Source of the DNA: an uncultured Gemmatimonadota bacterium
GTDB lineage: Bacteria; SM23-81; DAOVCL01
Assembly (NCBI GenBank): GCA_964626665.1
Contig: CAZVGK010000015.1
Coordinates: 1 to 64,000 of the forward strand
Direction: 5' to 3'
DNA length: 64,000 bases
A program made the translations under genes and the position numbers. The notes under the pieces were generated by a model. It ran no database searches. It was given only the letters and a program-made list of their open reading frames with translations, and had not been told where the DNA came from. Below are positions 17,161 through 63,840 of the stretch, in pieces. Position 1 is the stretch's first letter. Every line of letters begins with the position of its first letter.

Positions 17161-17363
17161 GGATTTTTTTGACGATTTAACTGAACCCCTCTAAAGTCGC
17201 CATAAAGCTGGTAGCACAGGACAATTCCATTTTTGAACGCAGATGAACGCAGATTGCCAGATTTTAGGTATTGGCTTTCTGCGGGTATCAACGAAAACCT
17301 GCGTCCTGATTAAAGGTTCTCTCATTCTTAATTCTACATTCTACATTCTTCATTCTCTCCTCC

Positions 17364-18401: not shown

Positions 18402-18596
18402 TTACCTTAAGTTTCTGCGGATTTCCCCATTTGGTAACATATTGTCTGGGTGGAATTCCCCTTTTTCCTCCATTTGGTAACGAATGCAGTTCTTATTGCC
18501 CACCAAGCAATAATTTTCCACCCAATACTTCTCCAATTTCCCTTCATCAGTGAAGTACTTGATGGGACAACTGTAATACCATTTGCATACCGCCAT
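18402..18596 (-). CDS. Small Cys-rich hypothetical protein
   Basis: 64 aa, C..CP...YC...CIRY...HPDNMLPNG; AAGGAG upstream. Confidence 0.7.
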   Translation of the reverse strand: MAVCKWYYSCPIKYFTDEGKLEKYWVENYCLVGNKNCIRYQMEEKGEFHPDNMLPNGEIRRNLR

Positions 18597-18864
18597 ATTT
18601 TTTGTTTGAATTTGTCTCCTTCGCTATTTGTAGTGCATAACGAGTACAAATCCGAAGCGAGACTGGGAATTACGTCTATCGGAACCAACGGCTTATTGCT
18701 GTCAGAGCTCCTGCCCGGACAAAAGAGATTCCTTTCCTGGGTACGATAGTTTCTTTGACCTGCCTAAGGTTTGCAACACTCAAGATATTTTTCGGGATTT
18801 TCAATTTGGGCGTGACTCAATCTAGAGCCCGAAGTGGAGGAAGCACCGGATCTCTTTCTTATCA

Positions 18865-18995
18865 CATCTTCTACAATCTTAATTTCTTCCACTATCAATC
18901 CGTACAATTGTAAACCACCTGATTGATCCGGTGTTCGATCATGTCGGTTTGGCATTGAATTATCATCTCTTTGTGGCTTGTTTTCGCCGTCAAGG
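18865..18995 (-). pseudogene. Frameshifted remnant of a type IIG R-M C-terminus
   Basis: AKTSHKEMIIQCQTDMIEHRINQVVY/LYGLIVEEIKIVED aligns with AKTPDEKTRLQRQIDATDQQIDRLVYELYGLTEEEIKIVEE. Confidence 0.7.
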
Positions 18996-19246
18996 TCATC
19001 GTATACCTGTCCCGCGATTTTGCGAGCAGCGGAAACATCGATTCGAAACGGCGCGCAGCCTCGTCTGATTAACAGGTTCGGGTTCTATCAAAGTGCCAAA
19101 CATTTTGAGAGGGAAATAAAGGACGTGGCGCAGATAAATTCCTATTGCCCCGTTTTCCCTCATTCCCTGCGAATTTAAAAAAAGATGTGCTGAATGTGTA
19201 GCTAGGCTACAGTGGACAAAGCAGCTTCCGCACACTCTTTTTATCT

Positions 19247-22030
19247 CTACCGAAGGTTGCCCAGCAAGCCTTTCACCCAAGAGACTTGCTCGAGGTCATT
19301 CCACAACCAATCGTAGGCCAGTTCTGTTGCGGAGTTCGGGCGGAATATATCGAGACCTTCCTTGTGTAGCGTTACACCAATCCATTCGGCTGCCTCGGGG
19401 CGTAAGGAACGTACTCGATCAAAGCTTGTTTGAAGAATATCGGAGTCCGGGTAGTGAAGGTGTTCGCCGAGGTGGAGATCGACCGTAGTTTTGCTACCGT
19501 GCGGCAACGCCTCCAAATACCATTTGATAACGGGACCAACCTGGATTCCTTTATCCGGCTGCGGTGGGGCTACTATACCTACAAAGCGAGCAGGTAATGT
19601 TGCCGCTGTCTGCAGTCTATGTGTGAACTTCTGAAGCCACATATCAACGAGTCGCTGGTATCCCTCAAGCGCTCCCGCATATACAGCCTTCGCGCGAGTA
19701 AGTATCTGCTTGTCGGTATAAGGACTCCAAATCCATCCTCCGCTGAAGTCTCGGTCCGGTCCAGGCCAAGGACTACACAATTCTGTCTCGCCAGCCCCAT
19801 GGAGGCGATTCACCTCCGCCCTGAATTGGTTAAGATCGTACCGCCGTCCGCCTGTGCCAACGGGACCAGCATCCTCTGGCAACCGGGAGAGACGTTCTTC
19901 GATTTCGGCGAGAGGGATGGGGCCGGGATGCAGTGATCCGCGTCCGGTAACCGCTAGTGCAGCTTGCCACACGGCTTCGCGCGCAAGGGGGCCCTTGCTA
20001 ACCGGTAGTGCACGATGTTGCAACAAATTTGAGAGTGAGGAGACGAGCTCATCAAGTGCCCATCGCCAAGCCCATGCCGGCTGGCGGCCAGGCCTAGCCC
20101 TCCGAAGCCTAGTCCAATTAGTTGATAATGAGCCAAAGACATGAACGTCCGATGGTAACTCGACCACCTTAGCTAGATCATCGTCCCCACGATACCAGGC
20201 GGTTGTAAGCCACACCCCGCTTGTGTGTGCGCCAACTGACAGAAGCGTGCCATCCTTGCGAACTGGTGCAATCAACTGGGCGAGCGGGCCGATGCCACTT
20301 GTCCATGCTTGCATCGCTGTCCGTACTCGCTTCCCGCATTCGAGCGGCGGCGGTGGTGGCACGTCCTCCACAAGACCCCAACGCGCCAGTCCCTCGTTTA
20401 CAATCTCAGCAGCGAGAGCAGGATGCCTCTCAGCGAGCGGCGCGAGCAGCTTCGATACTTGGTCGTGGTTGAAAGTACCAGCAAAGATGATGAATGGGTA
20501 TCGCCAGTGCTCAAGTCGCTGAGAGTCGCTTATAAGAACTTCGGCCTTGGGAACACCGGCAGCCAGACTCTGCGCTGCAAACCACTGAGTCAAGATGGGT
20601 AAGGGAAAAGCAAGTGCTCCAGAGCGCTCGACGACCAATCCTGAATTTAAAAGCTGCTGCAACTCAGCTTTTGAGGCAACTTCTGCAGCGGAGACTGGTC
20701 CACCATTACGGTCAGTAGAAAGGCTCGCGAGCCGTTGTAGCAACCAGTTGGCGTTGGTGAGGTTAACTTTCACTCGACTGAGGGCGCGCTCGACGAGACT
20801 TGACAACAACTCCCCTGTCGAGCGTGGCGCTCTCATGTCTTGCTCCCGCAGGTAAATACCCAGCAGCACGGCAAACAAGGGGCAGCGAACGGCGTCCTGA
20901 ACCGATTTTGGCCAACTCCAAGCCGTGGATGCTGTGACCGGATGTCCTGAAAACCGGCCAATGAGAGCATACGCTTCCGCTTCAGAAAGCTGGGGGACTT
21001 GAACAGCTTCCTCTGCTTCAGTAAGATTCGGGATTGGTCTACTGGTGATAACTGTCTTAGTTTTTGGCCATGTACCGACAAGAACACGAGCTTCATTGAG
21101 CAACTCGGCAGCAAGACCAGTTCCGACCTCATCAGCTCCGTCGATGATGATCGCCGCACCTTGTATTTGCGGATTGCCTAAGCCACTAGCGGCTGCTTCT
21201 ACAGCTTCTCTCAGCCGTTCTACAGCAGATCTCGCGTCTAGATAGACAGGGACAGGGGTATTGGCGTTGTCTCGCGCTCTCATGACCGCGTCTTGAAGAA
21301 GGCGCTCCGCTGTCAGCGACTTGCCCACGCCGATTTCTCCTATAAGTAGAAGAATCGGCTTCTCAGCGTGGGGTTGCAGCTCAGACCTGAGTGCCCCGAC
21401 GGAGAGGTTGTCAGCAAGATTGGAAGCTTCGGCCCAAGGCACTCCTGCAGCTTGCCAGCGCATGATGCACCGTGCCCTCGAGGCCCGACCGATCTCCTCT
21501 AACCGAGCGAGACGGCCGAGACCCCGCTTACCACGCATAGCCCACACGATTTCATCCCCCAAGGTCAAATCGAGCGCCTGTCGTAGGCCACCTGCTGCGG
21601 TCGTGTCAATCCACTTTGCCTGAGGCTTAACTTCTTGCAGCAAGGTTTTTGTCACCTCATCCTGTTGTTCTGCGGGTAGTTTCATCACCCATAAGCGACG
21701 GTTGCTGGCCAGCGCCTCGCGGATCTCCTTTTGAACTGGCTTCGTAGTCTTCTCCCCCACAAGCCATATTACGACATCAGCTTCCCGAACTTTGCGCAGG
21801 TAGCCCTCGTCGACAGGCTCCGAACTGGCAGGGGTGTACTCGAATGCCCACGAGGTCAGCCACGGGACGCGATTGAGCGTGTGGACTGTTTCTTGGCGCA
21901 CTTCGTCAAGCTCTGGGCACATTACACTGCTCACAAACGCAATTAGCGGCGGTTCGCCTGGCTTGATGGGTGGACGGCCGGAAACTGGACCTTTTTGCTC
22001 TTTCTCATATCTGGCATTTGGGCCTTTCAT
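19247..22030 (-). CDS. DUF4062 (TIR/NDT-like) plus NACHT-type STAND NTPase, candidate antiphage protein
   Basis: N-terminal FVSSVM..L...R...AFE...YLRKVREADVVIWL; Walker A GEIGVGKS; Walker B IIIDGADE; PLF motif; ATG overlaps the R-M stop. Confidence 0.75.
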   Translation of the reverse strand: MKGPNARYEKEQKGPVSGRPPIKPGEPPLIAFVSSVMCPELDEVRQETVHTLNRVPWLTSWAFEYTPASSEPVDEGYLRKVREADVVIWLVGEKTTKPVQKEIREALASNRRLWVMKLPAEQQDEVTKTLLQEVKPQAKWIDTTAAGGLRQALDLTLGDEIVWAMRGKRGLGRLARLEEIGRASRARCIMRWQAAGVPWAEASNLADNLSVGALRSELQPHAEKPILLLIGEIGVGKSLTAERLLQDAVMRARDNANTPVPVYLDARSAVERLREAVEAAASGLGNPQIQGAAIIIDGADEVGTGLAAELLNEARVLVGTWPKTKTVITSRPIPNLTEAEEAVQVPQLSEAEAYALIGRFSGHPVTASTAWSWPKSVQDAVRCPLFAVLLGIYLREQDMRAPRSTGELLSSLVERALSRVKVNLTNANWLLQRLASLSTDRNGGPVSAAEVASKAELQQLLNSGLVVERSGALAFPLPILTQWFAAQSLAAGVPKAEVLISDSQRLEHWRYPFIIFAGTFNHDQVSKLLAPLAERHPALAAEIVNEGLARWGLVEDVPPPPPLECGKRVRTAMQAWTSGIGPLAQLIAPVRKDGTLLSVGAHTSGVWLTTAWYRGDDDLAKVVELPSDVHVFGSLSTNWTRLRRARPGRQPAWAWRWALDELVSSLSNLLQHRALPVSKGPLAREAVWQAALAVTGRGSLHPGPIPLAEIEERLSRLPEDAGPVGTGGRRYDLNQFRAEVNRLHGAGETELCSPWPGPDRDFSGGWIWSPYTDKQILTRAKAVYAGALEGYQRLVDMWLQKFTHRLQTAATLPARFVGIVAPPQPDKGIQVGPVIKWYLEALPHGSKTTVDLHLGEHLHYPDSDILQTSFDRVRSLRPEAAEWIGVTLHKEGLDIFRPNSATELAYDWLWNDLEQVSWVKGLLGNLR

Positions 22031-25000
22031 CACTGCGTTGCCTCCTCCACAATCTTAATCTCCTCCTCCGTCAACCCGTATAGCTCGTAAACCAGCCGGT
22101 CAATCTGTTGGTCGGTGGCGTCAATCTGCCGCTGGAGCCGGGTCTTCTCGTCTGGTGTCTTGGCCACTGCCAGGCGCTTGTGCAATTCCAGCATCTGCTC
22201 TACCAGTTCCACCATTCGGTCGTGATGGGCTTTGTCAGAAACCGAGGTCAAATCAAGGACAGGTATTGGAGTTGATTCTATGTATTGTTTGGAAAACCTG
22301 AAGTAACCACCACGCATCTGCGTACTTTTAGCAAAGACAATAGCTCCAAAAAGCCTGGAGTTCAGAATGCCTAACAAATAGGGAAGACTAATGGTTTCAT
22401 CCAATGAGCGAATACCATAAAAAGGGCCGCCACCGCCACCTGTCATGTAAAGTTTTCGATCATCATAGATCACCGTTGGTCTTAACGCAAGGACTTGAAT
22501 GATCAACTTAGGTTCTTCCATCTGTGTCAGATTTTGAGATCGCCCAAAGGCATACCATTTTTCATGATTCCACTTGCCTTTTTCTCGAGACCTTAGCGCC
22601 TTTTCATGAGATTTTAGATGAGCCCATGCATTTGGGAATTTATCTTCAAAATCACCTTGTGATATAAGCGTTGCTTTCTTGTTCTGCAAATAATAAGGAA
22701 ACAACATCCAGTAGGAAGTTTGGGGGAATCCATAGGGTGGAATGGAACTCGGTTTTAAAAAACGGTGAAGAACCTGTGGTTCTATGTTGTGAGGGTTTTC
22801 AAATACGAAAACTCTATCAGCACCAGTCACGAGGCCTTGAAATATTTTGCTTATGTCCCCCAACGTTACTGGCATCTTGTTCAACTCTTCGAAGAGATCC
22901 GATCCTTTTCCCACGATAAAATTCCATTCTGAAGCCAAAGTTTCCCCCGCATCAAATTTGCCCTCAGTCGCTTCTGCATTCGTTCTCCATGCTGTTAAGT
23001 TATCCACCCTGGCAAATTCAAATTGATTACAGATGGCCTTATCTAAAAAGAGCAAGCAAGTATATGTTGAGGCTCCTGAAAATATCTGCTGCGCACCGAA
23101 ATGAATGATCTTTGAAATATGTCTACCCTTGGAGAGGATTTCACGTAGGGGCTCACCATACTTTGCATTGAAAAACTTGTGTGGCAAAATGTAGCCCATG
23201 CGACCTCGGTCATTGAGCAGTTGTAACGCTCGTTCCACAAAGACCACATAAATGTCGTAATTTCCTATGGAAGCGGAGTAATAGTGTTGCTTGTAAAATT
23301 CTACCTCTGTGGGTGCCCACTCCCTCAACGCTTGAATCCGGACATACGGTGGATTGCCGATTACTGCATCGAAGCCACCTGCCTTTATAATCTCTGGGAA
23401 TTCCGTTTCCCAGTCAAAGACATTAATGCGGTAGCGTTCTTCCTCGGCGAGCAGGCTCATCTGCTGATTATCGTAAAAGTCGGGGCCGATGAGGGAGTTG
23501 CCGCATTTAATGTTATCTCCCAGATCGGGGAGTGCCCGCTCTCGCCAAAGCTTTTGTTGGCTTTCCAAGGTATCCTGGCTTTCCCCCTCCAAGACCTTGA
23601 GCAGGAGGTTAAGCTTGGTTACCTCCACGGCCTGACTGTCTATATCTACACCGTAGATGTTGTTTAACAGAATCCGTTTCTTCTCCTGGGTGGTGAGCCA
23701 CCACTGGCCGCCAGGGCCCTGGTAGATAGGGATCTGGGGTCGGGGGCCGGGGACCAAGGAGCGGAGGGCCCTGGCCGGGATTTTGCCCCTGAAATCCCTT
23801 GATGGGAGGAAGTGTTCCACATACCAGTCACGGTGGTAGTCCAGAAGATAGCTATAGGCACCGATCAAGAAGGAACCAGAGCCACAGGCAGGGTCTAAGA
23901 TGCGAAGGTTGACTATCTGCTTAGGGTTTTTGCCGTTACACAATTTTCCTAAAGTGTTTTCTACAATGTAATTCACGATATAGGTAGGTGTATAGTAAAC
24001 TCCACCGGCTTTCTTCACCTCTGGTTTGTCCTCAACCTTGGCCTGATGCTTAGGGGTGAGCCTGATCACTTTTCCCAGGAACTGTTCGTAGACATTGCCC
24101 AGTATATCAGAACCAAGGACGGAGAACTCATAAGGGCTCTCCGGATAGTAGAGGAAGCGGATGATCTCCTTGAGCACTTTATCGTCAATTATGAGGGCTG
24201 GAGTGAGGTCATCCGGTGGTTCGGCCCGATCCCTTTCGGCTCGGAAATGGAAGAGGCCGGAGTTATATTTGTCATCGGCAAGGCCGTAGAGGTAGTTTAG
24301 GCGGGCATAGGTTTTTGTGCCGTTGAGCAAGGCCTGAAGCTGGCCATAGGTCTCAATGCCCCGATCCTCACACATCCGCAGGAAGATGATGCGGTCAATG
24401 GTGCGCTGCACAGCGAAATTAAGCTCCCTTACAGATAGGGTAGGGTTACGCAGGGCAATGTTGCGGGCCAGGGCATTACGCCACTGTTCTATCTCCTTTA
24501 AAAATTCCACATCAACCGGGGAGGTGCCTTTTTTCCCTTTGGTTGTCTCGGCAAAACGATCAAAGGAACCCTTTAAAACTGACTCCTTAGAAAAGATCTC
24601 GGCGATCTCGTTCCAACGAGTGGGATAATCTTTGTAGGACAGGTAGAAAATCCTGTCTATGCTTGGCCTGTCTGTTGGCTTGGGGCGGATGCGGCAGTCA
24701 TAGACGGCAAACTCTTCAAAGTCGGTAAGTATGGAAAGGGGGAGCTTGGCGCTCCAGGCATAGCGGCGCAGTTGATAGGCAGGGCTTATATTCCCCTTAA
24801 GGTCAATGGCTGGTTTCTTCGCTTCCAAGAAGAATTTGCGAGCGCCACCAATGCGAAAGCAGTAATCCGGGGCCTTGGTGGCCCCACCAACCTTGATCGC
24901 ATCCTCGAAGATAACATCCTTGTAGGCCTCGGCATAACCGGCCCTGTTGGAGACATCCCATCCCAATTTCTCAAAGAAGGGTTCGATGAACTCTCGCCGC

Positions 25001-25113
25001 ACCTGAGCTTCGTTGTAGCCCAGGCTGCGGTAGGAGGATAGATTCCTCTCAAACCGCTCTACCAGGTCCAGGATCAGACTGGGCACATCAATGTTTGATC
25101 TCTTATTGCTCAT
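22030..25113 (-). CDS. Type IIG (Eco57I/TaqI-C-like) restriction-modification enzyme
   Basis: PDY...FLEAKK nuclease; GVYYTP, ILDPACGSGSFL, GVDID, GNPPY N6-methyltransferase motifs; TRD; LYGLTEEEIKIVE tail. Confidence 0.93.
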   Translation of the reverse strand: MSNKRSNIDVPSLILDLVERFERNLSSYRSLGYNEAQVRREFIEPFFEKLGWDVSNRAGYAEAYKDVIFEDAIKVGGATKAPDYCFRIGGARKFFLEAKKPAIDLKGNISPAYQLRRYAWSAKLPLSILTDFEEFAVYDCRIRPKPTDRPSIDRIFYLSYKDYPTRWNEIAEIFSKESVLKGSFDRFAETTKGKKGTSPVDVEFLKEIEQWRNALARNIALRNPTLSVRELNFAVQRTIDRIIFLRMCEDRGIETYGQLQALLNGTKTYARLNYLYGLADDKYNSGLFHFRAERDRAEPPDDLTPALIIDDKVLKEIIRFLYYPESPYEFSVLGSDILGNVYEQFLGKVIRLTPKHQAKVEDKPEVKKAGGVYYTPTYIVNYIVENTLGKLCNGKNPKQIVNLRILDPACGSGSFLIGAYSYLLDYHRDWYVEHFLPSRDFRGKIPARALRSLVPGPRPQIPIYQGPGGQWWLTTQEKKRILLNNIYGVDIDSQAVEVTKLNLLLKVLEGESQDTLESQQKLWRERALPDLGDNIKCGNSLIGPDFYDNQQMSLLAEEERYRINVFDWETEFPEIIKAGGFDAVIGNPPYVRIQALREWAPTEVEFYKQHYYSASIGNYDIYVVFVERALQLLNDRGRMGYILPHKFFNAKYGEPLREILSKGRHISKIIHFGAQQIFSGASTYTCLLFLDKAICNQFEFARVDNLTAWRTNAEATEGKFDAGETLASEWNFIVGKGSDLFEELNKMPVTLGDISKIFQGLVTGADRVFVFENPHNIEPQVLHRFLKPSSIPPYGFPQTSYWMLFPYYLQNKKATLISQGDFEDKFPNAWAHLKSHEKALRSREKGKWNHEKWYAFGRSQNLTQMEEPKLIIQVLALRPTVIYDDRKLYMTGGGGGPFYGIRSLDETISLPYLLGILNSRLFGAIVFAKSTQMRGGYFRFSKQYIESTPIPVLDLTSVSDKAHHDRMVELVEQMLELHKRLAVAKTPDEKTRLQRQIDATDQQIDRLVYELYGLTEEEIKIVEEATQ

Positions 25114-25301
25114 TTTTTAGATAAGATGGACAGGATGGCAAAATTGGGTAAGCCCTGTCAGCCTAATTTAATCTTAGATCCGATAGGGGAGGGGTTCTGC
25201 CGACACCAAACTCACCCTCTCCTTAGCCCTCCCCCATCAAGGGGGAGGAAATTGTTTGGGAGCCGTTAGTGGCTATCTCCATTTTGTAATTCGAAGCTTC
25301 G

Positions 25302-25973
25302 TCAGTCTTCCTCTATCAACTCCTCAGGAATCTCATCTATGGGGAAGAAGTACTTGAAATTATCAGGGCCCAACTTTGCCTCCAGCTTTTGCATAATTGC
25401 CTGCACATTATCATCTGGGCCACTTATATAAAATGGCTTTCCATTTTTGCCAAATTCCACCTCGGTAATCTCTCCAAACTTATCTCTTTCCTCCAGGATA
25501 TACTTGGACAGTTTGAAATCCTTTTGCGGCTTGAAGCCCAGCTCTGAGGCATAATCAATTGCCCCATAGATGATCTGATGGGCTAAGTCCACCGGACATT
25601 CAACGGGGTTTTGCTCCTGGTATATCTTAGCCTTCAAGTCCCCTTCATAATTCGACATAGAGAAGTTGGCATGGCAGAAGGTATTCTTCAGGCCGAGGCA
25701 GAATATATCTATCAGGTAGACTCCAAAAACGAGGTTTCCATCTGCTTGCTGGCGGGAGAGCAGGATGTTGGCCATTCCTCGCTCTTTCCAGGAAGCATTT
25801 ATCAGACATTCATAAACGGGGTAATGGAGGGCATTGTAGATGATGCTCTTGGGGGATAAATGAGTCCAGGCCGAGGAGAAGAGACCTTCCTTTTTAGCCT
25901 TTTTCTTCCTCAACTTGTCCTTTTGCCTCTTCTTCATCAGTGTCTTCTGCCTTCGCTTTTTGTCTCTTCCCAT
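25302..25973 (-). CDS. Conserved hypothetical protein with basic N-terminus
   Basis: Start moved to ATG 25973 (SD GGAGG); YLIDIFCLGLKN, GKPFYISGPDDN. Confidence 0.75.
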   Translation of the reverse strand: MGRDKKRRQKTLMKKRQKDKLRKKKAKKEGLFSSAWTHLSPKSIIYNALHYPVYECLINASWKERGMANILLSRQQADGNLVFGVYLIDIFCLGLKNTFCHANFSMSNYEGDLKAKIYQEQNPVECPVDLAHQIIYGAIDYASELGFKPQKDFKLSKYILEERDKFGEITEVEFGKNGKPFYISGPDDNVQAIMQKLEAKLGPDNFKYFFPIDEIPEELIEED

Positions 25974-26603
25974 TTTTAGCCCTCCAGAAGGAGCAGTCGG
26001 TAAATCCAACCGTCCTTTTTTTAGGTTTTGTAACAGTTCACCACGGATAGCCATAGATTTCACTGAATCTCTTTGGAACATTCACCCCGCACTTATGCAT
26101 AAGTGCAGGGCGAATAAACGAATCTACACGGATAGATAAATTTACCACGGAACTGCAAAGCTTACCACGGAAATTCACGGAACCACACGAAAAAGAGCAA
26201 GTAAAAATTGAGAATTAAGAATGAAATTTATGCTGGCTATCCCCAATCCCTGTTTTTTTGTGCATAGTCCGTGGTTGTCCGTGGTGAAATTACCACAGAA
26301 TCTCACGGAAAAAAGCAATTGAGAATTAAAAATTAAGAATTAAAACAGATTGCACGGATAGTAAAAAAGATACTTGAGGTCCCAGGCATTCTCCTGATAT
26401 ATACCGCTTCTCGCCTAGGCAGCCTGGAAAACTTTGCCCAAATAAAAAGCTCTTACGAAATTGTAGCACAGGGGACAGGGACCGGCAGTCAGTGGTAAAT
26501 AATCAGGAGTCAGCTGTGGTCGGTTTCCCCCAAGGTTGCTGCCCTTTGGTCAAAGAGTTTAGCAAATCTATCTCTGTTATATTGGGGCATTCTACGCTAA
26601 CTT

Positions 26604-27503
26604 TTAGTTTCCCTTTTCTGATGTTTCCTCAAATGCCTTTTTCAATGCTGCCTTTTCTGTGATGGTGTATGCCTTGGCCAGCAGAAGGTTGAGGTTTTTA
26701 TTTCCTATAGTGAAAGGGGACTTCCCCAGCCTCTTCAGGATCGGATTTTCCACCTCAGGTGGAGAGGGATCGACCACAAAGGAGTCCAGGGCCTTCCCGG
26801 CCAGCCAAAACTCCTCCGGGGATCCGCTAAAAGAGAGGACCGGCTCCCCCTTGGGGGGAGATTTTCCCTCCGACTTCGCTGTGGCCTCTGGCTGGACCTC
26901 GGTCCGTTTCTCCCGCAGGGTTTTAGTAATCTCTTCCTTTGTTCTGCCCCTCAGCTTGAAGATGAGGAATGGGTCCTCATCGAAGCGCTCTGCCAGAAGA
27001 TAGTAGACAGCAGCGATATGCTTGCAGGGGTTAGCCCAATCAGGACAGGAGCAACTGGTGATCAGCTCCCTTCTTTTCTGGGGAAAGAGCGAAACCTTAG
27101 CCTGGGCAAAGGCCTCCTCTATATTTTGGGGCATCTCTCCAGCCAGCAACTTGGCCACAAATATGGCCTTGGATGTCATTGCATCTGCCACTTTATCCCA
27201 ATTCTTATCGGAGAGGGGATGCAACTGAATCTTGACCGCATAGGGTTTTCGCCTCGTCCCCTGGACCTTGGCTATTACCTCCCCCTTTTCCACATCAATG
27301 GAGACCACCTGGCCTCTGCGGGCATAGGAACGTCCTCTGGTGAGCCTGGCCCCCATATTAAAGGACTCCAGAACGCCAATCCAACGTTTGGACCACCAGG
27401 TCTCGCCGATTTTTCCCCGTTGGCTTTTCGCCTTGATACCATCCTTGACCTTCTTGGGCCTTGCCGGTGGGTAATATTGCCAGTAGCTATCCCATCGAGG
27501 CAT
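26604..27503 (-). CDS. SWIM zinc-finger protein
   Basis: RGRSYARRGQV, CSCPDWANPCKHIAAV. Confidence 0.92.
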   Translation of the reverse strand: MPRWDSYWQYYPPARPKKVKDGIKAKSQRGKIGETWWSKRWIGVLESFNMGARLTRGRSYARRGQVVSIDVEKGEVIAKVQGTRRKPYAVKIQLHPLSDKNWDKVADAMTSKAIFVAKLLAGEMPQNIEEAFAQAKVSLFPQKRRELITSCSCPDWANPCKHIAAVYYLLAERFDEDPFLIFKLRGRTKEEITKTLREKRTEVQPEATAKSEGKSPPKGEPVLSFSGSPEEFWLAGKALDSFVVDPSPPEVENPILKRLGKSPFTIGNKNLNLLLAKAYTITEKAALKKAFEETSEKGN

Positions 27504-27745
27504 ATTTCCCTCCTCTGGAGCTTAGCTCCTTTTGACCGCTAACTTCTTTGCATTGGAATTGCCATAAAGTGTGCTGTCAGGAGTTACCTCCTGACAGCTC
27601 TTACAATAATAGACAGGATGGACACGATGAAAAAATCCCGTAAATCCTGTTCATCCTGTTAGAAAAACTCCACCGCAGGGGGCTAAGTTCACTCTGATCC
27701 CGTCTCTGCTTGCCTGGGTTGATAAGGAGTAACCTTTGTCGGTGG

Positions 27746-30700
27746 TTAATCACTGACTGCCTCCTTGCTCAGGGTAAAGACCTCCCTCAGTTGATTGGTG
27801 GAGAGTTCTGTGAGCCAGCCCTCGCCTGCGCCGATGATCTTTTCGGCTAGCTCCTTTTTTAACTCGATCATCTGGTCTATCCGCTCCTCCAGCGTGCCGA
27901 TACAGACGAACTTGTGCACCTCTACATTCTTGGTTTGGCCAATGCGGAAGGCCCGGTCGGTTGCCTGATTCTCCACTGCTGGGTTCCACCAGCGGTCGAA
28001 GTGGAAGACATGGTTGGCGGCAGTGAGGTTGAGCCCAAGTCCACCAGCCTTGAGGGAGAGGATGAAGAGAGATGGCCCCCGGCGGTCATTCTGGAACCTT
28101 TCCACCATATTGTCGCGCTGTCTCTTGGGGGTGCTACCATAAAGGAAGATTACCTCGCATCCCAGTTTTTCTTGTAGATAACGATGCAATATACCCCCCA
28201 TACTGGAGAACTGGGTGAAGATCAGGGCCTTGTCTTCCTCGGCGAGAACCACTTCCAGCATCTCCTCTAACCTCTTGAGCTTGCCTGAGCGTCCGAGGAG
28301 GATACTCCCATCCTGCAGGAAGAGAGCCGGATGGTTGCAGATCTGCTTGAGCTTCATCAGGGTGGCCAGCACCAGTCCCTTTCGTTCGATCCCCTCTGAA
28401 TTCTCTATCTTCTCCAGCATTTCCTTGACCACCGCCTCATAGAGCGATGCCTGCTCCGATGTGAGGTTACAGAAGACCTTCATCTCCATCTTCTTCGGCA
28501 GATCTTTGATGACCTTTGGGTCTGTCTTCAACCGCCTGAGCACAAAGGGTTGGATTATCCTTCTGAGCGACTGAGCCCGTTGGGGATTTCTATACTTCTC
28601 AATGGGTAGGGCGAAATTGGTGCGGAAATCTTTGGCAGATCTAAGATAACCTGGGTTGAGGAACTCCATAATCGACCAGAGCTCGGAGAGACGGTTCTCC
28701 ACAGGGGTGCCGGTGAGGGCTATGCGGTGGTTGGCCTTCAGTTTTCTTATGGCCTGGGTCTGCTTGGCAGATGGGTTCTTGATATTCTGTGCCTCGTCTA
28801 AGCCAATGTTCTCCCAGTGGACCGCGGAGAAGGTCTCTTGATCTCTATAGGCCAAAGCATAGGTGCTGAGGACCAGATCATTTTTCTTTGCCTCCCTCTT
28901 AAAGGTTCTACCTGTGAGCCTGTTAGGACCATGGTGAACCATAACCCTGAGCGAGGGGGCAAACCTCTCCACCTCCCTCTGCCAGTTGCCCACAACCGAC
29001 ATCGGGCAGATGAGGAGCGTGGGACCGGGCTTGGCCTTTTTGTTCTTCCTCTCGTGGAGCAGAAGGGCGATGAGCTGGATAGTCTTGCCCAGGCCCATAT
29101 CGTCAGCCAGACAGGCACCAAGACCAAACTCTTTCAGGAATACAAGCCAGCTAAGCCCTTTTACCTGATAGGGACGGAGTTTGCCTTGGAAGGCTCTGGG
29201 TGGTTTGAGTGGAGTTAACTGAACATCATCGGAGAGCCTTTGCAGGAGATCGTTTAACCTACCCTCGGCCACCACTCCCACCACGGGGAGGCCCACTGCC
29301 GGCTCCTGGCCACCAAGTCCGAGCCGCATAGCCTCACCCAACTCCATCTGACCATCACCGTGCCTCTTCTGGAAGAAGGCAATGGCCGATTCGATCTCCT
29401 CCCGCCGCAGCTCTACCCACTCCCCTCTTACCTTAACTAAGGGGACTTTTAAGCTGGAGAGTTTCTCGAATTCTTCAGGGGAAAGGGTCTCCTCTCCAAT
29501 GGCCACCTCCCAATCGTATGACACGATACCATTTAGGCCCAGAAGGCCGGAACTGGTTCCAGTGGAGGATTTTGGTAAGGTCAACTTCAGTTTAATCCCT
29601 ACCTTATTTCTCCGTTTCTGCCACCAGGAGGGGAGGAGAAGGCCGAAGCCGCTCTCCTCTAAGAGGGGAGCTGACTGGCGGAGGAAGGCGTACGCCTTCT
29701 CGGTTTTCATCTTTAGTTCCACCGGCCTGGGGGTCTGCAGGCTTTCCTCAATGGTCGGGAAAAGCCGGGAAGCCCTCCCCAGGTCGGCTAAGAGCCTCTC
29801 CTGGGGGTTTTCAAACCTCCGCTTGAGGAAGGTAACCACCCTTGACCTTGACCTCCAGACCTTCTCTGCTGGAACAAGCAGGCTGCGATCGTCTTTGGCC
29901 TGAAGCCAGAAACTTATCTTCCATTCCTTTTCCTGGTCATCAACTGGGGGGTCGAGCCTGAAACAGGTGCGAAAGGGAGCCCCTGAATCTGCGGGCTTGA
30001 CCTGGCTCAGCCAGGGGCGAGCCTTTTCCAGGAAGGGGAGGATCTCCTTGTCCGATGCCTTAATCGTCGGATCGGTAGAGCTCAGGGCTTCAAGCAATCT
30101 TTCTGCTAGGGTAGGCTTGTGGCCCTTACGGGGAGAAAAGAACGATCCTGGGTTCAGGCTCCTGCGCACAAAGCCGTCCAGGGTGCGATGCAGAAAGCTC
30201 AAGAGGAGTTCTGAGGGTAGGGGGGACCTGCCAGGGAGCAAGCGACAAATAGGGGGCATTGCCTCGGTGAGGTAAAAGATTCTTTCAGCTTCCCCTCCCC
30301 CGATAACGGCTTCCCAGCGGGCCTGAAGGTATCGTTTGCCATCCTCTATCTTCTCGCTGATTGTTGGCGCATACTGCCCTTTAATGATCAACTGCAAGGA
30401 GAATTTGGCTACTTCCATCCAAAAACGAAGGGAATCACTAAAGGCAACTCCGTGAGGAGATTGGCTGGACAGGGAAAGGAGGAATTTCAGAGCCAGGTCA
30501 GGATCTGCTTTCAGGAAAGGGACATCCCAGGGCAAGAGATCAGTCTCCTTCATAGTTTCCATAGGTTCCTCCCGAATTAACCAGGGGGAAGGAAGAGGTC
30601 CCTGGGGACTGGAGGGTAGAAGGATGGGAGTAACTTGCCAGGCTGCACTTTTCCAGGGAATCCGGGGAGAGAGATCCTCTAATGCTCCTTTTAGCTCCTC

Positions 30701-30847
30701 CTCGGCCAAGGCAAAAGGATGAAGGCGGGATCTTGGTTTCCTTGGCCGCCTTCCCTTCCGCTTTGAGGCAGAGGTTGGGAGGTCGGAGGATTCGGCCCAG
30801 AGGCCCAATTTGCCTGAGTTATCCCAGATGGAATGGAGAACTAACAT
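27746..30847 (-). CDS. SNF2-family helicase with DUF3670-type region
   Basis: LADDMGLGKT, LDEAQNIKN, TGTPVEN, GLNLTAANHV, WNPAVENQATDRAFRIGQ. Confidence 0.95.
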   Translation of the reverse strand: MLVLHSIWDNSGKLGLWAESSDLPTSASKRKGRRPRKPRSRLHPFALAEEELKGALEDLSPRIPWKSAAWQVTPILLPSSPQGPLPSPWLIREEPMETMKETDLLPWDVPFLKADPDLALKFLLSLSSQSPHGVAFSDSLRFWMEVAKFSLQLIIKGQYAPTISEKIEDGKRYLQARWEAVIGGGEAERIFYLTEAMPPICRLLPGRSPLPSELLLSFLHRTLDGFVRRSLNPGSFFSPRKGHKPTLAERLLEALSSTDPTIKASDKEILPFLEKARPWLSQVKPADSGAPFRTCFRLDPPVDDQEKEWKISFWLQAKDDRSLLVPAEKVWRSRSRVVTFLKRRFENPQERLLADLGRASRLFPTIEESLQTPRPVELKMKTEKAYAFLRQSAPLLEESGFGLLLPSWWQKRRNKVGIKLKLTLPKSSTGTSSGLLGLNGIVSYDWEVAIGEETLSPEEFEKLSSLKVPLVKVRGEWVELRREEIESAIAFFQKRHGDGQMELGEAMRLGLGGQEPAVGLPVVGVVAEGRLNDLLQRLSDDVQLTPLKPPRAFQGKLRPYQVKGLSWLVFLKEFGLGACLADDMGLGKTIQLIALLLHERKNKKAKPGPTLLICPMSVVGNWQREVERFAPSLRVMVHHGPNRLTGRTFKREAKKNDLVLSTYALAYRDQETFSAVHWENIGLDEAQNIKNPSAKQTQAIRKLKANHRIALTGTPVENRLSELWSIMEFLNPGYLRSAKDFRTNFALPIEKYRNPQRAQSLRRIIQPFVLRRLKTDPKVIKDLPKKMEMKVFCNLTSEQASLYEAVVKEMLEKIENSEGIERKGLVLATLMKLKQICNHPALFLQDGSILLGRSGKLKRLEEMLEVVLAEEDKALIFTQFSSMGGILHRYLQEKLGCEVIFLYGSTPKRQRDNMVERFQNDRRGPSLFILSLKAGGLGLNLTAANHVFHFDRWWNPAVENQATDRAFRIGQTKNVEVHKFVCIGTLEERIDQMIELKKELAEKIIGAGEGWLTELSTNQLREVFTLSKEAVSD

Positions 30848-42791: not shown

Positions 42792-43382
42792 ACCAGCTCC
42801 GTTCTTGGCTTCCTCAGATATATACTCCGAACGGTCATAGCTTAAGCATTTTCGGGATTTCTTTTAACCGCAAAGAACGCAGAGATCGCAAAGGATTTTA
42901 CTCTGTGGGTCTTGCGTCTTCTTCGCGAACTTTGCGGTTAGAAAACGCAGATTATACCCGTGTAAAGTATACAAGGGATATTCTACCACGCTTTAGCGCA
43001 GGGTCTTCCTGAGCCGTCAGTTGCCCTCCTCTGACGGCTCGCCGCAAAGGATGTGCGTTAATCTGCGTCCCATAGAGTCCGTCTGAAGCGAGCTAAGTTC
43101 AGTGTAGGGGTTCGATTCATCGAACCCGCAAGACGGTCGGATAAATCCGATCCTTACGAAGATTTTCTCCCACCCTTTACCCCATCCATTCATAAATTCG
43201 TAGGTAACATCTCAGGTCGCCGAAAGTTTTTATTGCAAGGACAGAGGAAAGCGGACAGGCATAAGGTTTCTCCCTACAGAACTCCGTCAGGGCAAGGGGC
43301 CTACCAGCACAGAAAATCCAGAGGATCTGCGTTAATCTGCGTCCCACAGAGTCCACCCGCAGGACATTAAGTTCTTCTCGGG

Positions 43383-45561: not shown

Positions 45562-45798
45562 TTGTTTCCTCCCTTCTTTTATAAAAGCTTGAACACGAAT
45601 TCCACGAATAGACAAATGGCACGAATTCTAATTGACTCGGCTTTCAGCGTTCAGCCTTCAGCACTCAGCTTTTAACACCGAGGTGGCAGAACCCCGATTC
45701 TGCCACTCTCCCTTAATCGCCGTCAGGTGAGGGCACCTGACGGCTCGTCTATTCCTGTGGATTCGTTTATTCGTGCCATTTGTGTTCCAAAGCTTCGA

Positions 45799-50748: not shown

Positions 50749-50967
50749 TTTCATCTCCTTTGCTGAGTTGTTCCTTAAGATAAGCAATTGCTCAGAGTTT
50801 TTCAAGAAGTTTTATCTCAGACAATAGGTGAAAACACCAAGTGACACCGAAACCACCGAAATATCAGGAAATTATAAACCTGATTTGTCGGGAGGTTTTT
50901 AAGCGAATCCCCCCAGTTTTCTGTTATTACTCAGGTTACATTATAGTCAACACATAGGCATTCCAAT

Positions 50968-51057
50968 TGTCATTGCGAGGAGCGTAGCGACGAAGCAATC
51001 TCATAGTCTAAACCCCCGTTCGAAGGTTTAGATTGCTTCGCTGCGCTCGCAATGACA
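50968..51057. repeat. TGTCATTGCGAG...CTCGCAATGACA palindromic element (RPE/REP-like); partial copies near 9961, 12089, 53057
   Basis: Terminal inverted repeats with GAAGCAATC/GATTGCTTC arms. Confidence 0.85.
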
Positions 51058-51132
51058 TGTAATCTTTTTAGTGACCCCAATAGTATTTCGGTGTTTAATG
51101 AACAATTTGTGTAAAAGGGGGTGAACTGCAAA

Positions 51133-53040: not shown

Positions 53041-53244
53041 GTTTACACATTATTGGGATTGCTTCGCTGCGCTCGCAATGACATGTAATCTATTTATTGC
53101 CCTTAGTGGTATCTTTTGTTCGTTGCCTGTTCCTGCTATCTAATGAGAGGATAATAGCAAAAGATAGGGGAGATGTCAAAAAGATTCTCACCCCACCGAA
53201 AATCCCCTTGACCTTAGGGGGATGAGAGGGTATTATTCACGGCG

Positions 53245-60448: not shown

Positions 60449-60532
60449 GCCGAAGTGGCGGAACTGGTAGACGCGCTGCGTTCAGGGCGCAGTGCCCGTA
60501 TGGGTGTGGGGGTTCAAATCCCCCCTTCGGCA
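60449..60532 (+). tRNA. tRNA-Leu(CAG)
   Basis: GCCGAAG acceptor, CTGCG-TTCAGGG-CGCAG, long variable arm. Confidence 0.96.
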
Positions 60533-61050
60533 CTGTTGTCCTTTAATGGATAGGACCAATGAGGATTTAGGGACATAAATGGTTCAATCTCCTTTTTTGG
60601 TAGGGTTCATTGTGCAAATGGGGCTTTCACTCAGTTTTACATGGGTTTATACCAATTGGCCATAGATCAAAAATCTTCCTCTAAAAATAGCTTGACAAGT
60701 GGATTTGCAGGTGTTAATCTTCATTTGGTTTGTTTTACCTTTATATCTTTTGATTTAAAAATCGTAGCGTAGCACAATTAGCATGTCTTGCCTTGGTGTA
60801 TGAAGCGATGTTTTCCTAATACCTGGTAGAAGGAGTTAATAAACAAGGTAGTTAATCGACATCCTTTTATGATTCCAATCTTAATGCCCATTCGAGGTTC
60901 ACCATCTCGTTAAGAGATGTAAAAAAAACTATATATGGACCGGCATCGAAAATTCAGTTAAAGAGGAGCGGCGCACACCCGAGCGGAGCGGCTTTGCTTG
61001 TGGTTTGGAAACCACCAAAGCCTGCATAGAAAGGGGGCGATCAAACTACT

Positions 61051-61110
61051 ATGTGGCTCCTTGATCTACTCGTTAGCTTATTAGGTAAAGGCGGCGATAC
61101 TGATTGGTAA
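61051..61110 (+). CDS. Putative 19-aa peptide MWLLDLLVSLLGKGGDTDW
   Basis: AAAGGGGG SD-like element 13 nt upstream; enclosed by an 18-bp inverted repeat. Confidence 0.5.
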   Translation: MWLLDLLVSLLGKGGDTDW

Positions 61111-61143
61111 TAGCTTTTCGATGTCGGTCCATTTTTTGTTCAC

Positions 61144-61830
61144 CACTTATCTCACCGCAAAGCCGCCAAGTTCGCAAAGGAAATAAAAAAGCAAAAGCGA
61201 AATAAAACGAATGGTTAATAACTTTTAAAAAACTTTGCGTCCTTTGCGCCTCTGCGGTTAATCTGTCCCACCGCAAAGCCACTAAGATCGCAAAGGGGGG
61301 AAAACAAAAGGAAGGAGGAATGATTAAACGAGAAGATGAATTATCAAATGAAATTATTGGATCAGCAATCGAAGTGCATCGGCATTTAGGGCCAGGATTG
61401 CTTGAATCTGCTTATGAAGAATGTCTCTGTCGAGAATTTGCTATTAATAATATTGTCTTTGAAAGACAAAAGCCTCTTCCTATAAATTATAAAGGGATAA
61501 ACTTGGACTGTGGTTATAGACCTGATCTCGTTGTAGAGAAATTGGTAATTGTAGAATTAAAGACGATCCAACAAATCGAGGCTATACATCAAGCACAACT
61601 TTTGACATATTTGAAATTATCGAATCTAAAACTGGGGTTATTAATCAATTTTAATGTTCCAGTTTTAAAGGATGGGATAAAGCGATTGGTTAATAATCTT
61701 TAAAAAACTCTGCGTCCTTTGCGGTTAATCACTTATCTCACCGCAAAGACGCCGAGATCGCAAAGGAAATAAATGAAATAATTGGTTAATAATCTTTAAA
61801 GCTTTGCGCCCTTTGCGCCTTTGCGGTGAA
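61144..61830 (+). mobile_element. Three tandem inverted-repeat units; the middle one carries the GxxExxY gene
   Basis: Each unit: CACCGCAAAG..CGCAAAG ... TGGTTAATAA..TTTAA ... CT(T/C)TGCG..TGCGGT. Confidence 0.65.
61320..61703 (+). CDS. GxxExxY protein (PD-(D/E)XK nuclease superfamily)
   Basis: EVHRHLGPGLLESAYEECL, YRPDLVVE...VELK, HQAQLLTYL, GLLINF. Confidence 0.93.
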   Translation: MIKREDELSNEIIGSAIEVHRHLGPGLLESAYEECLCREFAINNIVFERQKPLPINYKGINLDCGYRPDLVVEKLVIVELKTIQQIEAIHQAQLLTYLKLSNLKLGLLINFNVPVLKDGIKRLVNNL

Positions 61831-61842
61831 TTATTTCATCCA

Positions 61843-63198
61843 ATGAAAGAACTGCCTAAACCAGCCCAAATCTATATCTCCGGGATAATACTAATTGGCC
61901 TTGCCTATCTCGGCTACTTTTCCCAAAAGATGGTCCTCCCCCAGTGGTGGGAACTTCTCTTTTGGGCAGCACTTATTATTTTAACTAAACTCCAGTCCAT
62001 CCCACTGCCGAGAGGAGGGGCCACGATGACCGTGTCATCAGCTCTCTACTTTGCCCTCATTCCCCTTTATGGTCCCGTTGTCACCGCCTGGTTGGCAATT
62101 CCTGGCGATGTAGTTTTGAATGGTATAATAAAGAGGAAACCCCTTTATAGGGTTGAATTCAACGCCCTGCAACTCGTCATCTCCATCGGCCTAGCTGGAT
62201 TGATCTACCAACATCTTGGGGGTCAATTTATGCCCACCAACTACAGCAGAATCATTTTACCATTCACTTTTTCCGCCATAACCTTCTTTCTGGCAAATAC
62301 CGTTTTAGTGAGCATAGCTATCCACCTAATGGAGAAGATATCAACCTTGCGGATATGGTGGGTGAATTACAGTTGGACATCTGTGGACCTTTTAGCCCTT
62401 GGCCCTCTGGGTTTCCTTTTGACCCTGGTCTACATCCAAATTGGTCCCTGGGCAGTTTTCATCTGTATTGCCCCCATAATTCTGGCCCGATACTCCTTCA
62501 AGCTCTATACGGATCTTCGCCAATCTTATATCAACTCCATTACCGCTTTATCTGCCGCCTTAGATGCCAGCGATCCCTATACCCACGGTCACTCCAACCG
62601 AGTGGCGGAGAACGCCGAGAAGGTAGCCAGGCAGATGGGGCTTTCCGAGGGGAAGATCGAAAGGGTAAAATTTGCGGGACAGTTGCATGACATCGGAAAG
62701 ATAGGCCTTGATGTTAATATCCTTAATAAACCTGGCTCTTTAAATAACCAAGACTGGGAGGAGATGAAAAAGCATCCGGCCAAAGGTGCTGAGATAGTGA
62801 AGGGACTTAAGCCACCCATTTATGACATAGTTATGGCTCATCAGGAACATTATAATGGAGCAGGCTACCCGGCAAAACTAAAGGAAGACCATATACCTAT
62901 AGAGGCTCGTATAATCCATGTCTGCGATGCTTTTGAGGCGATGACCTCTGACCGACCTTACCGTTTTGCCCTTCCCCTTAGCCAAGCCGTCGACGAGTTG
63001 AGAAGGGAATCGGGAAAGCAATTTGACCCTAAGGTAGTGGAGGCCTTTCTCAAGTTAATGGAGAAGAGCGAGCTGATAATCGAGAGTGAGCGTAAACACA
63101 AGTTTACCGAGATAAAGAAAGGCCTCAGTAAAGACCTCATAGTCCTTAACGAAGCTTCACCTTCCCGGCCACAGGACGGCCAGACCACCCTGGAATGA
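61843..63198 (+). CDS. Membrane-sensor HD-GYP cyclic-dinucleotide phosphodiesterase
   Basis: Multi-TM N-terminus; DPYTHGHSNRV, LHDIGKI, HQEHYNGAGYP, DAFEAMTSDRPYR; start moved to ATG 61843, outside the repeat. Confidence 0.9.
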   Translation: MKELPKPAQIYISGIILIGLAYLGYFSQKMVLPQWWELLFWAALIILTKLQSIPLPRGGATMTVSSALYFALIPLYGPVVTAWLAIPGDVVLNGIIKRKPLYRVEFNALQLVISIGLAGLIYQHLGGQFMPTNYSRIILPFTFSAITFFLANTVLVSIAIHLMEKISTLRIWWVNYSWTSVDLLALGPLGFLLTLVYIQIGPWAVFICIAPIILARYSFKLYTDLRQSYINSITALSAALDASDPYTHGHSNRVAENAEKVARQMGLSEGKIERVKFAGQLHDIGKIGLDVNILNKPGSLNNQDWEEMKKHPAKGAEIVKGLKPPIYDIVMAHQEHYNGAGYPAKLKEDHIPIEARIIHVCDAFEAMTSDRPYRFALPLSQAVDELRRESGKQFDPKVVEAFLKLMEKSELIIESERKHKFTEIKKGLSKDLIVLNEASPSRPQDGQTTLE

Positions 63199-63840
63199 GG
63201 TGGCAGAAGCACTCTCCCGGTGCTGGTAGGGCTCCTGCCCTGACGGAAGATAGAATCTTCTACCCGACTTTAGTCGGGGTCTTTAGGGCTTAAGCCCTTT
63301 GGAATGCTGTGACTCCTGTCACAGCATCTGTCAACAGGAGTTACCACACTCCATAATAACCCGCACTAAAGTGCGGTAGAATCTACGTCTGTCTGCGTGA
63401 ACCTGCGATTTCTACCCGGTTTAGCCGAGGGTTTCCTCACCACGGATAACCACGGAATCACATAGAAAGATAGGGATCGGGGGTCAAGAATAACCGGCAT
63501 AAACCCCATTTTTAATTCTCAATTCTCAATTCTCAATTGCCTTCGCATTGTTACCCTGCAAAAAAAATTCTGAGAAGATCAAAAAAAGCTTGACAGGAAG
63601 TGATTTTAGCCTTATATTTACACTTGAAATTTGAAATAGCCCACAAAGTTGCGGGTTTTTTGTGCTGGTAGGGCTTTTGCCCTGACGAACAAGGCTTTTT
63701 GTGGGATGGGGAGAAACTCTAATCGAGGTTGAGGTAGCAGAACAGGGTTCTGCCACTTCGGTTGTTGCAACCAATAGTTTTTTATTCTTAATTCTACATT
63801 CTTCATTTTACATTCAAAATTCACTGTGAGGTGAGATAAG

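Follow-up and report, generated by a model that had tools for sequence, protein, structure and literature searches.

We analysed a 64-kb window (the whole stretch of 64,000 nt studied here, from contig CAZVGK010000015.1 of an uncultured Gemmatimonadota bacterium), in which a gene of the GxxExxY nuclease family lies among short inverted repeats. An earlier note on this DNA had described three tandem units, each bounded by inverted arms, with the gene in the middle one. Sequence reading and a repeat search agreed with that description. Three head-to-tail units occupy 61152-61829 and have common arms of about three 9-nt repeats (ACC-GCAAAG...). The left-arm pattern CCGCAAAGNCNCYRAGWTCGCAAAGG was found three times on the + strand, at 61155, 61271, and 61741, whereas 100 shuffles gave an expectation of 0, and right arms were present at all three units. 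In every unit the left arm follows the consensus (T)CACCGCAAAG-n-CnCnrAG-wT-CGCAAAGG. The unit ends are the reverse complement of that arm, CTTTGCG-yC-CTTTGCG-CC-TyTGCGGT(G/T)AA, and the outer tips are ACC...GGT. The heptamer CGCAAAG occurs 21 times in the window (5.7 expected), and 15 of these 21 copies fall within these hairpins. The features are as follows.

61152..61261, + strand: unit 1, a gene-less miniature cassette (left arm 61152-61180; right arm CTTTGCGTCCTTTGCGCCTCTGCGGT, 61233-61258)
61269..61296, + strand: left arm of unit 2, CACCGCAAAGCCACTAAGATCGCAAAGG, with the outer-end ACC at 61270
61297..61319, + strand: leader of unit 2, with the Shine-Dalgarno-like GGAAGGAGGA ahead of the start codon (GGAGG ribosome-binding site)
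61320..61703, + strand: intact GxxExxY gene, 127 amino acids, inside the middle unit (unit 2)
61708..61728, + strand: right arm of unit 2, CTCTGCGTCCTTTGCGGTTAA, with only two repeats
61738..61829, + strand: unit 3, a gene-less miniature cassette (left arm 61738-61766; right arm CTTTGCGCCCTTTGCGCCTTTGCGGTGA, 61802-61829)
61843..63198, + strand: downstream host gene of the HD-GYP type (MASE9 and HD_5 domains), starting 13 nt past the last right arm
42862..42943, + strand: dispersed gene-less hairpin of the same arm subfamily, with GAGATCGCAAAGG in common with unit 3

Unit 1 folds as RNA at -29 kcal/mol (z -3.3) and unit 3 at -35.3 kcal/mol (z -5.4). The hairpin at 42862-42943, about 18 kb from the tandem units, folds at -35 kcal/mol (z -5.4); the gene-less copy that had been placed at 42864-42940 is real. 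It brings the hairpins of the CGCAAAG arm family within the window to four, and it shows dispersal. An Rfam scan of 60500-61900 gave chance-level matches only.

The outer units were said to retain only the last 19 nt of the gene, which slightly understates what they hold. This 19-nt sequence (ATTGGTTAATAATCTTTAA) is present exactly at 61685 and 61781, and with 3 mismatches at 61210-61228 (0.01 expected). Unit 1 has 47 nt in common with the 3' end of the gene and its right arm, at 89% identity. Unit 3 additionally retains 15 nt from the 5' part of the coding sequence (61771-61785, identical to 61346-61360 at 14 of 15 positions), and its interior is this 5' segment joined to the last 19 nt of the gene at a common ATTGG. 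To judge from these letters, the interior reads as a 329-nt deletion between two ATTGG words. Because the outer units hold pieces of the gene, the direction was from gene-bearing to gene-less.

The 127-amino-acid product of the open reading frame at 61320-61703 matches TIGR04256 (2.3e-46, 156.9 bits; cut-off 35) and PF13366/PDDEXK_3 (6.6e-44, 149.5 bits; cut-off 22). G26, E29, and Y32 of the name-giving motif and the catalytic D69, E79, and K81 are all present, and they are invariant in 26 aligned sequences. An AlphaFold2 model (pLDDT 93.5) has a restriction-endonuclease-like alpha/beta fold. Its best Foldseek matches were Cas4 SSO0001 (E 4e-3, TM 0.54), lambda exonuclease, and Hjc, all of them weak and none with E <= 0.001. 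Searching the sequences of solved structures yielded no meaningful match (best E 1.6). Profile searches with the protein gave no match to a Y1 (HUH) transposase; it is a PD-(D/E)XK protein. The TIGRFAMs note on the GxxExxY family presumably mentions rRNA intervening sequences. The family is very large: a scan of sequences clustered at 50% identity matched 22,802 representatives at E <= 1e-3 and 8,078 at 1e-10. Close database matches to the window protein number more than 8000; among the matches listed, identity is 70-94% for the best, which represent several phyla. In some homologues the annotated protein has an N-terminal MNHKDTKDTK extension, a translation of the left arm. Database proteins of 260-295 amino acids with two GxxExxY stretches are also numerous and are probably read-through products of tandem cassettes. 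A 2012 survey of the PD-(D/E)XK superfamily enters the function of GxxExxY / PDDEXK_3 as 'Unknown' (PMC3424549).

Arms, ends, and insertion sites in other genomes

A profile scan of genome contigs yielded 601 candidates, of which 599 were confirmed. We used the 80 best loci (57-79% identity; individual loci carry L numbers below), a sample that excludes distant PF13366 members. The sample spans 16 named phyla among 73 named rows, two archaeal-labelled bins included. With a strict arm pattern (two or three cores [AG][CT]N[AG]AG, spaced 8-11 nt), the nearest arms stood in the order left arm, gene, right arm at 57 of the 80 loci. Among the remaining 23, two have a flank shorter than 60 nt and three (L018, L056, and L078) have the outward-facing order right arm, gene, left arm. 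Arms at L002, L020, L036, L039, and L040 are visible by eye but were missed by the strict pattern. In total, the 80 loci (544,484 bp) contain 322 arms, whereas block-shuffled copies had 21-28. Of these 322 arms, 162 are no more than 130 nt from the gene.

We also aligned each upstream flank with the reverse-complemented downstream flank, tolerating transitions. Of 81 sets (the 80 loci and the window), one was skipped for a short flank; the score reached at least 30 in 66 of the 80 sets examined (a few of them outward-facing) and was low in 14. As a control, only 7 of 1223 other small open reading frames of the same loci had a flanking inverted repeat scoring at least 36, and several of these 7 sit in arm arrays or are cassettes with other cargo. 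The core heptamer varies by locus (CGCAAAG, CACAAAG, CACAGAG, CACGGAG, CGCGGAG, CACGAAG, CATGAAG, and others), and the two arms of a locus match. Five extra GxxExxY-like genes or fragments in the locus flanks (33-62% identity) had inverted repeats around four of them. L060 carries two cassettes with identical arms, and L046 has two copies of the gene. Five annotated matches from a plasmid collection, at 40-55% identity, also have arms or arm-like repeats: Bacteroides, Bernardetia, and Sphingomonas have clear ones, those of Treponema are short, and Gemmatirosa has an adjacent gene-less hairpin. Flanking arms, for which the earlier note had suggested a test across GxxExxY loci, were found at most of the 80 loci by the strict pattern and at all or nearly all of the five more distant annotated ones. 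Arm-gene-arm is the rule for the sampled family. The GxxExxY genes of L001, L069, and L077 have in-frame stop codons. These are decaying cassettes, because the genes are interrupted yet still sit inside their arms.

The two arms of a unit belong together. Each base of the ACC tip is seen in 58-60 of 61 cases; the opposite tip is GGT, and the longer forms TTCACC and GGTGAA are frequent. When anchored at these tips, the arms of the same locus are 82.1% Watson-Crick complementary over 27 positions (61 sets, from 60 loci and the window), whereas a left arm paired with the right arm of another locus gives 56.9% (maximum 60.7% in 200 permutations). Variable arm positions switch on both sides together. 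We placed the arm cores on a protein tree of 81 rows, built by a quick method with 48 of 78 inner branches unresolved. The arm core required 34 changes, compared with 48.8 after shuffling, and none of 200 shuffles was as low. One clade of 13 rows (SH-aLRT 97), 12 of them with CACGAAG or CATGAAG arms, covers six phyla, and the window's CGCAAAG clade spans Calditrichota, Pseudomonadota, Thermodesulfobacteriota, and Planctomycetota. Arm type therefore follows protein clade across phyla, as the suggested co-evolution of arms and protein would have it; however, physical linkage alone would produce the same pattern.

Homology between units ends at the arm tips. An all-versus-all BLAST of 58 units with 300-nt flanks gave 240 pairs. 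Alignments that reached the arms stopped within 3 nt of the tip at 49 5' ends and 63 3' ends, and none stopped 30-100 nt outside. Flanks were shared in only 7 of the 240 pairs, and some related genomes share a site (L003/L017, L009/L067, L022/L072, and others). The nearest relative of the window unit, L001 from Calditrichaceae, matches the window only over 61270-61699 (78.8%), and its flanks are unrelated. The empty orthologous site that the note had looked to was found at a locus other than the window's. In Sphingomonas parapaucimobilis the gene order is fabD-(cassette)-fabG-acpP-fabF, whereas Sphingomonas paeninsulae has an empty fabD-fabG spacer of plain 29 nt. At least eight further alphaproteobacterial records align across fabD-fabG in two pieces that lie 430-450 nt closer together. 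The cassette is inserted downstream of the fabD stop codon and ahead of the fabG ribosome-binding site. Given the matched arms, the sharp ends, and the occupied and empty site, arms and gene are one discrete, horizontally mobile unit. These comparisons show that the unit travels between distant lineages, ends sharply at the arm tips, and can be present or absent at an orthologous spacer.

The insertion sites have a common character. On the upstream side, a median of 16 nt separates the stop codon of the preceding gene from the left arm; on the downstream side, the next start codon follows the right arm after a median of 12 nt. The gene is co-oriented with both neighbours at 49 of 69 loci, compared with 74 of 181 control triples (p 5e-7), and with a given neighbour in 124 of 150 cases, compared with 190 of 305 control pairs. 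Annotated contexts include fabD-fabG, radA, ade, and a trpE-trpG-like pair, and the sites differ between loci. Cassettes lodge in very short spacers of co-directional gene strings, in the same orientation and without target duplication.

Gene-less hairpins, other cargo, and known systems

Gene-less hairpins of the same class accumulate near the gene and, it appears, genome-wide. Among 122 adjacent left-right arm pairs in the sampled loci, 60 enclose the gene (median interior 403 nt), and 52 of the other 62 have a loop shorter than 150 nt. The density of gene-less arms is 0.76/kb at 130-500 nt from the gene and 0.22-0.28/kb beyond 1 kb, compared with 0.046/kb in shuffled sequence. Seven of 37 gene-less loops scored above shuffles against the gene, but several of these are nested-hairpin artefacts. 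One tandem array (L021:200-1760) consists of about ten near-identical hairpins, one of which holds the gene; the loops are 48-49 nt with a small inner palindrome. Similar tandem hairpin arrays occur in L025, L050, and L019.

The window itself has at least three further hairpin families with an arm period of about 9 nt (cores CACGGA(A/T), CGCAGAT, and CACGAAT), in line with the families that the earlier note had mentioned. In these other periodic-arm families of the 64-kb window, no cargo gene and no GxxExxY or four-helix-bundle remnant was detected. Their sites, in three groups, and two individual hairpins are as follows.

18141-18170, 26162-26287, 63437-63470: periodic-arm sites
11932, 13181-13245, 17236-17310, 42782, 43060, 43330: periodic-arm sites
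45591-45787, 190-215: periodic-arm sites
26162..26287, + strand: other-family hairpin TTACCACGGAAATTCACGGAACCACACG ... GTCCGTGGTTGTCCGTGGTGAA, fold z -4.4, without cargo and without a GxxExxY or four-helix-bundle remnant
17236..17310, + strand: CGCAGAT-family hairpin, fold z -3.0, without cargo

Similar arms also lie next to other genes. At L068:5814-6188, a four-helix-bundle gene outside rRNA (PF05635 at 2.9e-39, and TIGR02436) is enclosed by a periodic arm pair; it surfaced in the unbiased control screen of small open reading frames, and the reading frame upstream of it runs through the left arm. L008 has a second four-helix-bundle (23S_rRNA_IVP) gene at about 7294-7660, with arms on both sides in the outward order and three tandem left arms beginning TTTCACC, as in GxxExxY arms. 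At L056:717-1178, a 154-amino-acid protein without a Pfam or NCBIfam match, in which a PD...EAK-like motif can be seen by eye, lies between CGCAGAG arms. It is followed directly by the GxxExxY gene in the outward order (right arm, gene, left arm), and the same order is seen in L078. Because there is other cargo in similar arms, the architecture is wider than GxxExxY. No rRNA was found in the window or in the 19 of 85 loci searched (0 Rfam matches); the neighbours are protein genes.

Among known systems, the closest relative of the cassette is the 23S rRNA intervening sequence (IVS). A Coxiella study describes an IVS of 428 nt, with a 28-bp stem of terminal inverted repeats and three tandem heptamers ahead of an S23p open reading frame of about 14 kDa, which is excised by RNase III (PMC4990558). 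The study also records the older idea that the IVS is a mobile element whose open reading frame serves mobility, by a mechanism long unknown (PMC4990558). The IVSs of Salmonella, Leptospira, and Coxiella share with the cassette a unit size of about 430-450 nt, terminal inverted repeats, a stem of about 28 bp, short tandem repeats on the 5' side (the IVS heptamers), and one loop open reading frame of about 120-130 amino acids. Both also lie inside a host transcription unit, and the four-helix-bundle genes of L068 and L008 adjoin periodic arms outside rRNA, those of L008 with the TTTCACC beginning. However, the cassette carries a PD-(D/E)XK nuclease rather than a four-helix bundle, sits in an intergenic spacer rather than in helix 25 or 45 of 23S rRNA, and has an arm period of about 9 nt with ACC...GGT tips.

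Three other systems are alike in part. REPIN/RAYT systems (RAYT, repetitive extragenic palindromic [REP]-associated tyrosine transposase) also have a single gene flanked by inverted short repeats, several repeat families per genome, and no target duplication, and the many gene-less hairpins of their repeat may have a counterpart here. Their enzyme, however, is an HUH/Y1 transposase of the IS200/IS605-like kind and their repeat is the REP palindrome, whereas the cassette has a PD-(D/E)XK enzyme, arms of triple 9-nt repeats, and a gene that moves horizontally with its arms and with sharp ends, in clades that span several phyla. DNA transposons and their miniature inverted-repeat derivatives resemble the cassette in their terminal inverted repeats and in internally deleted copies with both ends, like units 1 and 3. 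Unlike them, the cassette lacks a target-site duplication and a DDE or other known transposase, is very small, and sits in line within operons. Homing endonuclease genes, including PD-(D/E)XK ones, are likewise small nuclease genes that form the sole gene of a selfish insertion, spread across lineages, and leave no target duplication. However, cassettes occupy a variety of spacers instead of a single conserved target, they have no intron or intein context, and inverted arms are not a homing-gene feature.

The cassette explanation and its rivals

We consider it likely, on balance, that the locus is a small selfish 'hairpin cassette' of about 430-460 nt, with inverted arms of about 27 nt around a leader and the 127-amino-acid GxxExxY PD-(D/E)XK gene. 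The window contains one intact cassette, two tandem flanking copies that were stripped of nearly all of the gene by internal deletion, and a fourth miniature 18 kb away. In such a cassette, the arms would be the functional ends of the element and would pair as a DNA hairpin or cruciform. They might also pair in transcripts that cross the unit, in which case the cassette could be cut from host RNA, as RNase III does for the 23S IVS. The nuclease would make the DNA break from which the cassette begins to be copied to a new or matching site, and this copying would proceed by break repair rather than by cut-and-paste. Short repeats could give rise to miniatures through slippage or deletion between them, with tandem duplication as a further source.

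Several observations weigh against this explanation or limit its reach. The nuclease is not needed for the architecture, which also houses the four-helix bundle of L068 and the 154-amino-acid protein of L056. Target-site duplication was not found (direct-repeat matches of at least 3 nt in 2 of 61 sets, with 1.3 expected). In the window, the gene-bearing unit 2 has no significant closing stem (fold of 61266-61732, z -0.5) because its right arm is truncated to two repeats. Units 1 and 3 also have 9 nt in common outside their left arms (CACTTATCT), and as far as sequence can tell they probably come from local tandem duplication rather than from separate insertions. Outside the window, 30 of 37 gene-less loops are unlike the gene. 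The suggestion that the gene behaves as an autonomous element with internally deleted copies is upheld for the unit, its ends, its mobility, and its miniatures. The comparison drew on 80 loci, the best among at least 599 matches to one conserved subfamily, and on 5 plasmid-collection matches. Most of the loci are contigs of metagenome-assembled genomes, and the bin labels, including the two archaeal ones, may be wrong. Moreover, plasmids seldom carry the gene (5 of 72,556 records), and none of 50,697 phage records has it.

The comparison with RAYT/REPIN systems came from the earlier note, and by analogy it was a reasonable inference that GxxExxY nucleases mobilise or maintain repeats. In this form, a resident nuclease would recognise its own arms and disperse or maintain hairpins in trans; what replicates would be the hairpins, and the gene would be their flanked 'master' copy. 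The gene is indeed flanked by inverted repeat copies, and gene-less hairpins are common: gene-less arms are at about five times background beyond 1 kb and three times denser again within 500 nt of the gene. In the window, the 42.8-kb copy has fine-scale arm features of unit 3. The resident gene's core was found in 57 of 162 distant arms, compared with 11% expected, but 65% of distant arms have another core, which also counts against the cassette explanation. Arm type clusters on the protein tree, but linkage alone would explain this, and the commonest core, ACAGAG, is unclustered (19 changes, compared with 20.9 shuffled). The window has at least three other arm families without a cognate gene or remnant in 64 kb. 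The GxxExxY gene is horizontally spread and is sometimes duplicated (L060) or broken (L001, L069, and L077), whereas RAYTs are single-copy and vertical, and the enzyme class differs. The claim is further weakened because there is non-nuclease cargo beside similar arms and because arms and gene match only loosely within genomes. We therefore regard a RAYT-like role in trans as rather unlikely.

If the arms acted only in RNA, they would form a double-stranded stem (for RNase III processing, insulation, or masking of the ribosome-binding site) around a small nuclease gene useful to the host, which could thereby be expressed inside operons, and the DNA would not be mobile by itself. RNase III cuts IVS stems of equal size (PMC4990558), and cassettes sit in tight operon spacers, co-oriented with both neighbours. 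In many cassettes the left arm runs right up to the start codon, which means that transcription has to come in through the arm, and any read-through transcript must still form the stem. A scan for promoters and terminators around the window locus found nothing above chance. In L005 (about 3900-4450), the left arm has CGCGGAG repeats and the right arm matches CACAGAG/CACGGAG, giving 6 G.U-type pairs and 1 A.C pair, and it seems that the repeats of one arm all changed together. However, arm mismatches overall show no wobble bias (G.U 109, A.C 87, transversions 86, p 0.13), and therefore selection for an RNA stem is not supported. Six pairs with shared context had 3 compensatory and 9 non-compensatory double changes, and their single changes were 15 pair-keeping and 15 pair-breaking (two further pairs were skipped, since one member had no pattern-defined arm). 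From the lack of wobble bias and this decay of the arms, complementarity looks like a legacy of the making or copying of the unit rather than of long-term RNA-stem selection. These results also count against the cassette explanation. DNA mobility is shown by sharp-ended homology in unrelated contexts and by the occupied and empty pair. Hairpins and arrays without a gene have nothing to express, no good stem closes the gene-bearing unit of the window, and the cassette also occurs in contigs binned as archaea. Most archaea are not known to have bacterial RNase III. A purely RNA-level device is thus unlikely.

We think it improbable, in addition, that the hairpins are older REP-like sequences into whose loops GxxExxY and, independently, the four-helix-bundle gene are copied where arms match, by hairpin cutting and repair from a copy that bears the gene. 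The array of L021, with one gene-bearing hairpin among about ten near-identical ones, would fit such homing, as would the many gene-less loops unrelated to the gene, the lack of target duplication, the several cargo types in similar arms, and the two cassettes with identical arms in L060. However, the gene-less units of the window hold pieces of the gene and so come from a gene-bearing copy, the arms accompany the gene from phylum to phylum, and the empty Sphingomonas site is a plain 29-nt spacer with no hairpin. Tandem duplication and deletions of purely local origin, with no wider meaning, would account for the 9 nt common to units 1 and 3 and for the position of each unit directly after the previous right arm. 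The dispersed 42.8-kb copy, the same architecture at 57 of 80 loci in many phyla, and the sharp cassette ends contradict this as a full account, to which we give almost no credence, but local rearrangement may explain how units 1 and 3 arose.

Returning to the selfish cassette, a bolder proposal is possible, and we offer it tentatively. GxxExxY cassettes could be a new class of autonomous mobile element, in which triple 9-nt repeats form the hairpin or cruciform ends that the nuclease acts on, and which copies itself into operon spacers across bacteria and archaea, seeding REP-like hairpin families. Four-helix-bundle cassettes would be a sister line, and such a free-living relative would explain the origin of the 23S IVS. 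The hairpin-bounded GxxExxY cassette is a little-described kind of selfish mobile DNA. A literature search, with paywalled work and database notes outside its reach, found no description of arms around GxxExxY genes, and in the excerpts seen, no passage naming GxxExxY concerned repeats. Members of a very large family, GxxExxY / PDDEXK_3, sit, for the most part among those sampled, in a discrete, sharp-ended, hairpin-bounded unit that moves between phyla. What was a 'hypothetical nuclease' is thereby reclassified as cargo of a selfish element and perhaps as its engine. The architecture accounts for GxxExxY genes inside housekeeping operons and for annotation artefacts, both open reading frames that start in an arm (MNHKDTKDTK) and double-length read-through proteins. 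It also links one class of REP-like intergenic repeats with a gene, and it provides a testable sister system for the 30-year-old question of where rRNA intervening sequences come from.

Other repeats and genes in the window

Directly upstream of unit 1 is a long hairpin, at 60927-61140, with arms of 26 nt that are 85% complementary (fold -75.6 kcal/mol, z -3.8). Its interior of 162 nt includes a 19-codon open reading frame at 61051-61110 (MWLLDLLVSLLGKGGDTDW), and it has no Rfam match. A further intergenic repeat family, GTCATTGCGARGAG...GCGACGAAGCAATC, was seen at 9956-9995, 12090-12135, 50963-51060, and 53057-53112. Many C25 peptidases with type IX secretion system (T9SS) tails are encoded in the window, which suggests that the host is FCB-group or Calditrichota-like. 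Among the other protein genes, an open reading frame at 11007-11354 encodes a PemK/MazF-like toxin. A defence-like island at 17364-30847 contains SIR2, DUF4062/AAA, an Eco57I-type fused restriction-modification enzyme, SWIM, and an SNF2 helicase with DUF3670.

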